DNA of 5,186 bases from IMG/VR virus record IMGVR_UViG_2667527592_000010. One strand, written 5' to 3'. How positions within the stretch are numbered: position 1 is the first letter of the stretch; the number at the start of each line of letters is the position of its first letter. A model generated the notes under the pieces. It was not told where the DNA came from. It worked only from the letters and a program-made list of their open reading frames with translations, and did no database searches. Origin of the DNA: a virus. Taxonomy: Duplodnaviria; Heunggongvirae; Uroviricota; Caudoviricetes. Position numbers and translations under genes: made by a program. This document shows, in pieces, positions 2,925-5,186 of this stretch.

Positions 2925-3128
2925 ATGAGCAGCTTATTTTTAACCGAAGATGAATTGCTAATATTAACGGGCTGCAAATATGCAAGCCACCAGCGAAAAT
3001 GGTTAATGGAAAACGGGCTTCCGTTCTATACCAATCGTAGTGGCAAACCGATTGTCAGCCGGGATCTATTTACCTGCAATAAAACTTTACCACCACGCGA
3101 GGTAGAGCCCAATTTTGGTGCGATCTGA
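2925..3128 (+). CDS. Small integrase-associated protein (67 aa), DUF4224-like; putative excisionase / recombination directionality factor
   Basis: ORF lies immediately upstream of int and its TGA stop (3126-3128) overlaps the int ATG (3128-3130) as TGATG. The sequence MSSLFLTEDELLILTGCKYASHQRKWLMENGLPF resembles, from memory, the small DUF4224 proteins commonly found next to lambdoid integrases. The Xis function is inferred from position and size, not shown. Confidence 0.65.
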   Translation: MSSLFLTEDELLILTGCKYASHQRKWLMENGLPFYTNRSGKPIVSRDLFTCNKTLPPREVEPNFGAI

Positions 3129-4153
3129 TGGGAAGACGAAGGAAAAATCCTGAACACGAAAAATTACCTCCAAATGTATACCCAAATAAATATAGTTATG
3201 TATGGAAACCAACATCCAGAGAATCTGTCACACTAACCGCCATCAAGGATGGTTTAGCTGCTTTATGGAAAAAGTATGAGGAAACTGTAAATAATCGCGA
3301 TCGTGCAATGACATTCGGTCGCTTGTGGGAAAAATTCCTCGCCAGCGCCTATTACAGTGACCTTAGTCCAAGAACACAAAAAGATTATCTGCAACATCAA
3401 AAAAAGTTGCTTGCCGTATTCGGTAAGGTACCAGCGGATTCCATAAAACCAGAACACATCCGTCGATACATGGACAAAAGAGGGGAGCAGAGTAAAACGC
3501 AAGCCAACCATGAAAAAAGCAGTATGTCCCGTGTTTACAGTTGGGGGTATGAGCGAGGGTACGTGAAGGCTAACCCATGTGCAGGTGTAAGTAAATTCAA
3601 GGCCAAAAACCGCGAACGATATGTAACCGACAAAGAATACCAGGCAGTATTAAGCGTTGCACCTCTTCCTGTTTTTATCGCAATGGAAATTGCCTATCTG
3701 TGTGCAGCGAGGGTTTCCGATGTGTTATCGCTGAAATGGGAACAGATTGGAAACGACGGGATATTCATCCAGCAAGGGAAAACCGGAAAAAAACAGATAA
3801 AAGCATGGAGCCCACGATTACAGGCAGCGATCGAAAAAGCAAAACAGTTACCAAAATCTGCCTATGTGATCAGCAATCAATACGGCAACCGATATATGTA
3901 CAAAGGCTTTAACGAAATGTGGGTAGATGCAAGAAATCGTGCTGGAAAAATTTCAGGTATTTTAACCGACTTCACCTTTCATGATCTGAAGGCGAAAGGA
4001 ATTTCAGACTATGAAGGAAGCAGCCGGGATAAGCAACTTTTCTCTGGTCACAAAACCGAAGGGCAAGTGCTAATCTATGACAGGAAGGTTAAAGTTTCAC
4101 CAACACTTGATGTCCCGTTACCTGAAAATATTCCAAGAAAATATTCCAAGTAA
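3128..4153 (+). CDS. int: Lambda-family tyrosine integrase (341 aa)
   Basis: N-terminus MGRRRKNPEHEKLPPNVYP parallels the lambda Int arm-binding N-terminus (MGRRR…LPPNLY, from memory). Catalytic-region signatures are present: R195 in ARVSDVLSLKW, H285-x-x-K288, H308 and Y317 in GHKTEGQVLIYDRK. It sits adjacent to a tRNA 3' end, with GGTG 8 nt upstream of the ATG and TAA at 4151-4153. Confidence 0.93.
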   Translation: MGRRRKNPEHEKLPPNVYPNKYSYVWKPTSRESVTLTAIKDGLAALWKKYEETVNNRDRAMTFGRLWEKFLASAYYSDLSPRTQKDYLQHQKKLLAVFGKVPADSIKPEHIRRYMDKRGEQSKTQANHEKSSMSRVYSWGYERGYVKANPCAGVSKFKAKNRERYVTDKEYQAVLSVAPLPVFIAMEIAYLCAARVSDVLSLKWEQIGNDGIFIQQGKTGKKQIKAWSPRLQAAIEKAKQLPKSAYVISNQYGNRYMYKGFNEMWVDARNRAGKISGILTDFTFHDLKAKGISDYEGSSRDKQLFSGHKTEGQVLIYDRKVKVSPTLDVPLPENIPRKYSK

Positions 4154-4160
4154 TTCCAAG
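4125..4160 (+). repeat. Tandem direct repeats (13-bp unit AAAATATTCCAAG x2 plus a partial third copy TAATTCCAAG) spanning the int stop codon; candidate integrase arm-type binding sites
   Basis: Units at 4125-4137 and 4138-4150 are identical; 4151-4160 is a 10-bp partial copy with one mismatch. The array overlaps the last codons of int (…NIPRKYSK*) and lies about 45 bp from the tRNA 3' end, where the P' arm of an attL would be expected. Confidence 0.6.
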
Positions 4161-4205
4161 TGTGATTTTTGTCACTGACTTAATGATGTGTAAGTGATTG
4201 AATTT

Positions 4206-4295
4206 TGGCGGAGAGAGGGGGATTTGAACCCCCGGTGGAGTTGCCCCCACTCCGGTTTTCGAGACCGGTCCGTTCAGCCGCTCCGGCATCTCTCC
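4206..4295 (-). tRNA. serU: tRNA-Ser, anticodon CGA (type II tRNA with long variable arm), intact with encoded CCA
   Basis: Reverse complement of 4206..4295 reads GGAGAGATGCCGGAGCGGCTGAACGGACCGGTCTCGAAAACCGGAGTGGGGGCAACTCCACCGGGGGTTCAAATCCCCCTCTCTCCGCCA. It has a 7-bp acceptor stem, anticodon loop CTCGAAA, a 6-bp variable stem (GUGGGG/CUCCAC with one G-U pair), T-arm GGGGG-TTCAAAT-CCCCC, discriminator G and CCA. Confidence 0.95.
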
Positions 4296-4330
4296 GTTCA
4301 GATGGTTGCCATGATGCCAGGAAATTTGGC

Positions 4331-4339
4331 ATTTTAACA
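4331..4339 (-). promoter_or_regulatory. Candidate extended -10 element (TGtTAAAAT) for serU transcription
   Basis: The minus strand reads cTGTTAAAATgc about 35 nt upstream of the tRNA 5' end. No convincing -35 is present, so this is a weak call. Confidence 0.2.
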
Positions 4340-4388
4340 GTCCCTGTCCGTGCAATTTTGTTCAAGTGACGAGTTTGCGAGCAAAACG

Positions 4389-5186
4389 ATGATTAAGTGG
4401 CCCTGGAAAGTACAAGAATCAGCACATCAAACTGCCCTTCCCTGGCAGGAAGCACTATCGATCCCCCTTTTAACGTGTCTGACAGAACAGGAACAAAGCA
4501 AATTGGTCGCTCTTGCCGAACGTTTTTTACAGCAAAAACGGCTTGTTCCTTTACAGGGCTTTGAGCTGAATTCATTAAGAAGCTGCCGGATAGCACTTCT
4601 ATTTTGCCTGCCCGTTCTGGAGTTAGGACTGGAATGGCTGGATGGTTTTCATGAAATCTTAATTTATCCTGCGCCATTTGTGGTCGATGATGAATGGGAA
4701 GACGATATCGGTCTGGTGCATAACCAACGTATTGTTCAGTCAGGTCAGAGCTGGCAGCAAGGGCCTATCGTTTTGAACTGGTTGGATATACAAGATTCTT
4801 TTGATGCTTCTGGTTTTAACCTGATTATTCATGAAGTCGCTCATAAGCTGGACACCCGTAACGGCGATCGCGCCAGCGGAGTTCCCTTTATTTCGTTGCG
4901 TGAGGTTGCTGGCTGGGAACACGATCTTCATGCTGCAATGAACAACATTCAGGAAGAAATCGAATTAGTTGGTGAGAATGCGGCGAGCATTGATGCTTAT
5001 GCTGCCAGTGATCCTGCTGAATGTTTTGCCGTACTTTCTGAATATTTCTTTAGCGCCCCAGAACTTTTTGCTCCTCGTTTCCCTTCATTGTGGCAACGTT
5101 TCTGTCAATTTTATCAACAAGATCCTTTGCAGAGACTGCATCACGCTAATGATACAGACTCGTTTTCGGCGACGAATGTTCATTAA
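4389..5186 (+). CDS. mtfA: MtfA (Mlc titration factor A), zinc-dependent peptidase with HEXXH motif; chromosomal gene
   Basis: The protein from ATG 4389 ([23 protein letters not shown]…HEVAHKLD…SATNVH) matches my memory of E. coli MtfA at about 265 aa. TAA is at 5184-5186. The ORF track's start at 4350 adds 13 codons that I consider unlikely to be translated. Confidence 0.93.

Follow-up and report, generated by a model that had tools for sequence, protein, structure and literature searches.

The viral record IMGVR_UViG_2667527592_000010 (here called the window, that is, the whole 5,186-nt stretch of DNA analysed) is the right end of a lambdoid prophage in Escherichia coli together with adjoining chromosomal genes. 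Its tyrosine integrase gene, int, ends in a short tandem repeat array located before the tRNA gene serU (Table 1). The repeated element, ATTCCAAG, very probably represents the arm-type sites in the P' arm of a lambda-like heterobivalent integrase, Int, predicted to integrate in the serU anticodon stem-loop. An earlier sequence-only reading of the window had put these tandem repeats forward as candidate arm-type Int sites, and the proposal is now strongly supported, by comparison and not by biochemistry. The motif recurs in both arms of the attachment (att) site, its geometry is conserved in relatives, and it covaries with the N-terminal domain of the integrase, whose N-terminus is itself lambda-like. 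In addition, the crossover could be confined to a short interval of serU.

Tandem Repeats Finder reported a 13-bp unit, GAAAATATTCCAA, at 4124-4150 (2.1 copies, 100% match) and a 10-bp unit at 4143-4161 (1.9 copies). In the register used by the sequence-only reading, the array consists of AAAATATTCCAAG at 4125-4137, AAAATATTCCAAG again at 4138-4150 and TAATTCCAAG at 4151-4160; its count of 2.8 tandem copies is fair, the third copy being the 10-bp unit, which is three bases short. The element ATTCCAAG is present at 4130, 4143 and 4153 and nowhere else in the window, where 0.24 copies are expected; a count of three was reached in 1 of 200 shuffles of the window. The last eight int codons lie within the array, as does the int stop codon (4151-4153), and the protein tail reads ...ENIPRKYSK. 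When a promoter or terminator was sought in 3950-4450, nothing was found near the array.

Positions 3100-5186 of the window are 100% identical to E. coli AR_0089. In this genome, a 62-bp copy of window positions 4206-4267, with two differences, is located about 41.6 kb leftward, beside the zinT side of the chromosome. The sequence-only reading had suggested comparing the array with this other prophage end (attR). The 9-mer TATTCCAAG does recur there, just inside the prophage from the attR core copy, once inverted and once direct. Over the 49.9 kb formed by the prophage and its chromosomal flanks, TATTCCAAG has four copies, all in the two att arms (0.47 expected), a number reached in none of 100 shuffles. 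As predicted, array, core and other arm stand contiguously as one attP in three IMG/VR contigs (L105, L107 and L114). Measured from the anticodon-loop centre (4260), the motifs lie at -127, -114, -104 (variant), +51 (inverted) and +115 (direct), and the five copies span about 254 bp in all, or about 250 bp between site centres. Both attP arms carry this same motif, which differs from the core sequence and lies away from the crossover, as arm-type sites do.

Phages with integrases 55-61% identical to that of the window were found by tblastn. Chris1, KpF5, P7641, ST64B and BUCT708 (Int 58-61% identical) have an intact attP, each with its own motif: TATACCAAG in Chris1, TTTTCTCA in KpF5, P7641 and ST64B, and TATTCTAAG in BUCT708. 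Relative to the T-loop centre, three direct repeats are found at -93, -80 and -70 in the tRNA-Ser relatives (serU-type or other), and at -92, -79 and -69 in this prophage. With at most one mismatch, an inverted copy is present in the other arm at +86 in KpF5 and P7641 and at +83 in BUCT708, and a direct copy at +148/+150 in Chris1, KpF5, P7641 and ST64B. The serU relatives ST64B, KpF5, P7641 and Chris1 have the same target tRNA as this prophage and the same arm-site geometry within 1-2 bp, whereas they use TTTTCTCA or TATACCAAG as motif, and the whole array is downstream of the int stop codon in ST64B, KpF5 and P7641. An integrase family is common to these four phages, the E. coli CP-933U/Sp14-type prophages and the window (58-60% identity), and the ST64B record notes the likeness of its Int to CP-933U. 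According to the sequence-only reading, the repeats should not be missing from the attP of close relatives that integrate in serU. This repeat sequence is missing in the serU relatives, but an equivalent array with its own motif stands at the same position, which supports the arm-site idea and does not refute it. The comparison with the attP of related phages, also suggested in that reading, thus showed an array layout that is kept with different motifs.

The layout was surveyed in 80 loci with relatives (one genome per species, 44-99% identity), the strict criterion being three copies of an 8-mer, with at most one mismatch, near the int end. Thirty loci carried such a triple, all in the same orientation. 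The spacing was 13 then 11 bp in 24 arrays, 13 then 10 bp in five and 12 then 10 bp in one; the first spacing was 13 bp in 29 of the 30 arrays and the second was 10 or 11 bp in all of them. In control windows from the surveyed loci, any triple was detected in 31 of 1940 (1.6%), with scattered spacings. Degenerate arrays were present at the expected place in some loci that failed the strict test (L021, L023 and L068). In 13 loci the array starts 76-80 bp before the tRNA-Ser 3' end; L032 and L039 are among them, though their int genes end 366 and 1061 bp upstream. The array position follows the tRNA, not the int stop codon. Relatives at 44-65% identity thus have an 8-9-mer of their own arranged in this layout. 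Because the 13 then 10/11 spacing recurs across the integrase family, the 13-bp "tandem duplication" of the window is, on this comparison, the conserved spacing between two outer sites and not a product of random slippage.

Neutral replication slippage at the int 3' end would give repeats without a binding function, and the matches in the other arm would then be coincidental. The two 13-bp units are indeed 100% identical, and alleles with one, two and three units exist in E. coli, so slippage happens at the array. As an account of the repeats themselves it is nevertheless highly improbable. Spacing and orientation are maintained with unrelated motifs in the distant relatives (30 of 80, against 1.6% of the control windows), the array-to-tRNA distance is fixed, and the 9-mer is nowhere else in the 49.9 kb besides the other att arm. 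Moreover, the three-site layout is retained in L006, a diverged int allele with numerous synonymous substitutions close by.

Three further observations concern the att sites of relatives. In those targeting another tRNA-Ser (L013, L017, L023, L033, L035 and L039), a strong GC-rich hairpin, AAGGGGTTACCTTTCGGTAACCCCTT, separates the array from the tRNA 3' end and probably serves as a tRNA terminator supplied by the phage; the serU-type phages have no hairpin of this type. In Escherichia phage Evi (L012), the target tRNA points in the opposite direction, with one CTTGGTATA int-proximal and three tandem copies beyond the tRNA; the whole att site appears to be inverted relative to int. Relatives at the tRNA-Leu/Cys/Gly cluster (L048, L049, L058, L059, L075, L087, L089 and others) have the same 13 + 11 array, whose start precedes the tRNA-Leu 3' end by about 115 bp (71-126 bp) and not by 76-80 bp, and the crossover sublocation or the spacer may be different in them.

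The motif was also compared with the proteins encoded beside it. Among 22 loci falling into six motif classes, identity over Int residues 1-60 is 76% within a class and 38% between classes, while for the rest of Int it is 75% within and 59% between. Relative to the Int of the window, the catalytic part is 65% identical in KpF5 and 59% in Chris1, whereas the N-terminal domain is 33% identical in KpF5 and 48% in Chris1, and it is the KpF5 motif that is much more different. On these identities, the motif tracks the Int N-terminal domain.

This bears on the suggestion that the repeats are sites of the DUF4224 excisionase-like protein, similar to the tandem X1/X1.5/X2 of lambda, and not integrase sites. 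Three close direct repeats about one helical turn apart do resemble an excisionase filament site such as the lambda Xis sites (PMC4880445). Furthermore, the DUF4224 gene adjoins int and is annotated as excisionase family. The lambda Xis sites lie in one arm, however, whereas the motif is found here in both arms and at the outer ends of attP. It is also uncoupled from the identity of the excisionase: L021 and L016 have 91% identical excisionases with different motifs (TATACCAAG versus TACGCTAAC) and 47% identical Int N-terminal domains, while L020 and L021 share a motif with excisionases only 39% identical. Excisionase sites are therefore a very unlikely alternative to arm-type sites.

The sequence-only reading had described the integrase N-terminus as lambda-like, and this description is supported. 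The N-terminus (MGRRRKNPEHEKLPPNVY...) aligns from residue 1 to full-length lambda Int (MGRRR...LPPN.Y), which is the best solved-structure match (phmmer E 1.2e-12). Residues 1 to about 60 form the predicted arm-binding domain; in the AlphaFold2 (AF2) model they comprise strands at 17-19, 23-26 and 34-38 followed by a helix at 43-58, with a predicted local distance difference test (pLDDT) score of about 87. In Foldseek searches, the top match of the whole Int model was lambda Int (1z1b_A, E 3e-16), and that of the N-terminal domain alone was 2wcc, which is lambda Int 1-64 with P'2 DNA.

The att site of lambda is 240 bp long and has five arm-type sites, separated from the core by three sites for integration host factor (IHF) (PMC4880445). 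The lambda arm sites were located directly in NC_001416, where GTCACT-type sites are P1 at -138 (direct), P2 at -107 (inverted) and P'1-3 at +58, +68 and +79 (direct), P'3 overlapping the int stop codon. When flipped to lambda's int side, the sites of this prophage are at -115 (direct), -51 (inverted) and +104, +114 and +127 (direct). With P2 inverted in NC_001416, the layout here is the same as that of lambda. Both systems have five copies of a short motif distinct from the core, with three direct tandem copies beside int, and in the other arm an inverted copy near the core and a direct copy farther out. In both, the end of int is overlapped by the outermost P' site. Candidate IHF sites, known here as consensus matches, lie between arm and core, and the set of sites covers about 254 bp here, close to the length of the lambda att site. 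The two integrases align from residue 1 and have the same predicted domain order.

Several features differ from lambda. The motif is TATTCCAAG here and (C/A)AGTCACTAT in lambda, the tandem spacing is 13 then 10 bp instead of 10 then 11, and the two sites of the other arm are 64 bp apart instead of 31 bp. Here the core coincides with the anticodon stem-loop of a tRNA, whose 3' half is carried by the P' arm. The int open reading frame (ORF), namely its last eight sense codons and stop, is overlapped by all three P' sites, while in lambda the overlap is with the stop codon alone. Between the arm and core sites, the IHF consensus WATCAANNNNTTR is matched perfectly at +31 and +86 and with one mismatch at -63. 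IHF-like matches occur at the same positions in relatives, the -63 match being present in Chris1, KpF5 and ST64B. These candidate sites would parallel H', H2 and H1 of lambda.

Some points weigh against the identification of the repeats as arm-type sites. The match of the isolated N-terminal domain to 2wcc is not significant by itself (E 0.26, template-modelling score, TM, 0.52), and the Pfam arm-binding family PF09003 scores 15.7 bits (E 0.016), under its 22-bit cut-off and over residues 1-20 only. The strict repeat criterion was passed by only 30 of the 80 relatives, some of the others being degenerate, and since the surveyed loci share a phylogeny, they cannot be counted as independent events. 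Between the crossover and the triple array there are 104-127 bp here, against 58-79 bp in lambda, and with this greater distance a simple lambda-like bend at one H' site may not suffice. No binding or recombination data for this integrase were found in the literature searched. Likewise, no description of arm sites was found for serU, ST64B, CP-933U or this integrase family, in a search that left most subscription-journal papers outside; a paper on ST64B deals with a different integrase (IntA) and holds no arm-site data (PMC12455584).

A second element had been proposed in the sequence-only reading, namely TTGTCACTGAC at 4169-4179, containing GTCACT, which was likened there to the core of the lambda arm-type sites. 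The element is present as described and the likeness to lambda is right, P1, P2 and P'1 of NC_001416 all containing GTCACT; its role as an arm site found no support. It is a single copy, and GTCACT is not repeated in the other att arm. In either orientation, GTCACT occurs three times in the window, against about 2.5 by chance (our own estimate for a 6-mer on both strands). The element has three mismatches to AGTCACTAT, which is our 9-base rendering of the lambda arm consensus, and the window has 12 matches to AGTCACTAT with at most two mismatches (10.1 expected), none of them at 4169-4179. GTCACT near the array thus looks like a chance resemblance and is not supported as an arm site. The TGA at 4176-4178 within TTGTCACTGAC is the int stop codon in alleles that have one 13-bp unit or lack the 10-bp unit. 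In relatives from Klebsiella and Citrobacter, a partly similar RTCRYTGA stands at an equal offset (35 bp ahead of the tRNA end), and this likeness could reflect either shared spacer ancestry or another binding site. That GTCACT at 4171-4176 is a lambda-type arm site, and that the integrase recognises the lambda consensus, is very improbable: the element does lie within the P' arm and GTCACTGA is found at the same offset in KpF5 and P7641, but the GTCACT element is not conserved in Chris1 or ST64B, the Int N-terminal domain has little in common with that of lambda beyond residues 1-20, and different motifs are used in this integrase family.

The block shared by attL and attR stops just past the anticodon loop, here at 4267 and likewise in every relative examined. 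Within it, the variable-arm pair 4237/4248 is G/C at 8 of 8 attL loci and in 3 of 3 attP, and A/T at 14 of 14 attR loci and in an empty serU site (L095). Since this pair is of phage type in attL and attP and of host type in attR and the empty site, strand exchange is placed between 4249 and 4267, and the DNA from 4206 to at least 4248 is assigned to the phage. The 3' part of serU, from 4206 to about 4256, appears in this way to be supplied by the phage, and the 7-bp overlap region is presumed to be the anticodon loop, 4257-4263. A crossover in the T loop, which was suggested by the longest exact attL/attR match (4206-4236), was ruled out by the 4237/4248 variant pair. The sequence-only reading had taken the 80-bp spacer between int and the tRNA as the P' arm. 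The spacer does belong to the arm, but the arm is wider, reaching from 4129 to about 4256 and including the phage-borne tRNA 3' half.

A crossover in the tRNA anticodon loop is a general pattern for many tRNA-integrating tyrosine integrases. This prophage resembles that class in the attP/attB identity block, which begins at the tRNA 3' end and stops shortly beyond the anticodon loop, in the symmetric anticodon stem flanking a 7-nt loop, and in the restoration of the tRNA 3' half by the phage; its crossover is known as the interval 4249-4267.

Some additional features of the serU locus were recorded. The variable-arm difference between the phage serU 3' half and the host allele is compensatory (G:C in the phage, A:T in the empty site and attR), so lysogeny swaps in a variant, still paired, 3' half of this tRNA-Ser. 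The bacterial flank just left of the serU 3' end, GATAAGTCATTGATAAAG (L095 and the L001 attR), resembles the phage spacer GTGTAAGTGATTGAATTT and has a perfect IHF consensus on the opposite strand; this flank might be left over from earlier integrations, or it might function as part of attB. A different serU element, with a DUF6387 protein and the flank GTAAGTGATTGATTTTGTTGAATGAT, was found in L094, L098, L101, L104, L108, L109, L115 and L118. In several genomes it and this prophage are arranged in tandem, so that several elements share serU.

In the proposed mechanism, the small N-terminal domain of Int would bind the three P' sites (TATTCCAAG at 4129 and 4142, AATTCCAAG at 4152) and the two other-arm copies, which are about 41.6 kb away at attR in the prophage and at +51 (inverted) and +115 (direct) in attP. 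The C-terminal domains would bind and cut the core in the serU anticodon stem-loop, at about 4252-4268. The IHF-like sites (4191-4203, +31 and +86) would bend the DNA so that one Int could bridge an arm site and a core site, and the DUF4224 excisionase-like protein would bias the complex towards excision. We infer the actual binding, the split of the sites between integration and excision, and the roles of IHF and Xis.

Table 1. Features of the window around the int-serU junction, with neighbouring genes.
Feature	Position	Strand	Remarks
Candidate arm-type site P'3, TATTCCAAG	4129..4137	+	Farthest from core; inside int coding sequence; centre 127 bp from anticodon-loop centre (4260)
Candidate arm-type site P'2, TATTCCAAG	4142..4150	+	13 bp from P'3; ends just before int stop codon
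Candidate arm-type site P'1, AATTCCAAG	4152..4160	+	10 bp from P'2; overlaps last two bases of int stop codon
Spacer element TTGTCACTGAC	4169..4179	.	Not an arm-type site on present evidence
IHF-like site, H' candidate between array and core	4191..4203	-	ATTCAATCACTTA; WATCAANNNNTTR with one mismatch; consensus match alone
Block common to attL and attR (attP/attB common region)	4206..4267		62 bp, 2 differences
Predicted core	4252..4268		7-nt loop TTTCGAG (4257-4263) between the anticodon-stem strands CCGGT and ACCGG, which would be inverted core-type half-sites
Tyrosine integrase (int), 341 amino acids	3128..4153	+	Lambda-like three-domain layout; Pfam PF00589, PF22022, PF14659
Putative excisionase (recombination directionality factor), 67 amino acids	2925..3128	+	DUF4224; stop overlaps int start
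serU, tRNA-Ser(CGA)	4206-4295	-	ARAGORN
Exonuclease-like ORF, 823 amino acids	395-2866		
mtfA			Chromosomal gene beyond serU in the window

At least 80% of positions 3100-5186, with int, the tRNA and mtfA, is present in about 1135 of 5426 complete E. coli genomes, and this integrase is found in about one fifth of all complete E. coli genomes. Four copy-number alleles of the array were distinguished. The allele of the window (13+13+10, three sites, Int tail ...ENIPRKYSK) is carried by about 1050 genomes. A 13+10 allele, represented by strain 135, has two sites and the Int tail ...ENIPSNSKCDFCH, and is limited by subtraction to at most about 26 genomes. A 13+13+13+10 allele with four sites and an Int longer by 18 residues was found in at most 32 genomes (O157:H7 TR01, TW14359, EC4115, SS17, SS52 and others), those listed among the complete genomes being mostly named O157:H7 strains. 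Finally, one fetched genome, FDAARGOS_944, has a 13+13 allele without the 10-bp unit, with two sites and the Int tail ...ENIPRKYSKCDFCH. Array slippage occurs and alters both the number of sites and the integrase tail, which bears out the view of the sequence-only reading that the repeats shape the protein's C-terminal tail. The variants look rare and clonally inherited, and not hypermutable. Because the Int tail varies across the family once past the conserved ...SPTLD and is of low confidence in the model (pLDDT 60 and then 45 in the last two residue blocks), these changes of frame are probably tolerated.

In NZ_CP032265.1, the AR_0089 genome, the Prokaryotic Genome Annotation Pipeline (PGAP) annotates int as a "frameshifted" pseudogene (L001 1645-2695; window 3128-4178). 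Together with the ORF that ends at TGA 4176-4178 once one unit is removed, this flag initially suggested that int had recently been frameshifted by a mutation, the exact 13-bp duplication. The suggestion was dropped: the two-unit form is the common allele and is kept in the diverged allele, and the 13-bp spacing is family-wide. As the common allele has this frame, the PGAP flag probably arose artefactually, because the repeat copy number is polymorphic with respect to the reference proteins.

A wider interpretation is speculative and unlikely. The array and the Int N-terminal domain might be a modular recognition pair whose specificity is quickly changed, at least six motif classes sharing a single conserved 13 + 10/11 scaffold, and the 13-bp slippage in E. 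coli might be a natural tuning knob that sets two, three or four P' sites and, via the frame, the Int tail. If so, lineages such as the four-site O157:H7 strains would differ in the efficiency of prophage integration or excision.

Lambdoid prophages of pathogenic E. coli frequently dock at serU, and effector-carrying prophages of the CP-933U/Sp14 type occupy it. The gene has also been reported as an insertion site of Shiga toxin (Stx) phages (PMC8065619). The att architecture proposed here (five arm sites, candidate IHF sites and a crossover in the anticodon stem-loop) allows exact delimitation of the prophage, and would be useful for designing excision, curing and integration assays as well as serU integration vectors. 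The pairs of N-terminal domain and motif on a fixed scaffold are a ready data set for the study of arm-site specificity and of orthogonal integrase/att pairs. The lambda paradigm is unchanged by the array; specialists might make use of the switching of motif/N-domain pairs on this scaffold and of the link between site number and integrase tail.

Upstream of int, the putative excisionase matches Pfam DUF4224 (E 1.9e-15) and PHROG phrog_1266, annotated "excisionase" (E 3e-21); its role is taken from family annotation alone. In the exonuclease-like ORF, the C-terminal domain is an Rv2179c-like 3'-5' exoribonuclease (PF16473, E 6e-65), and a 21-bp tandem repeat (2.3 copies, 1922-1969) is located in a Q/E/N-rich linker.

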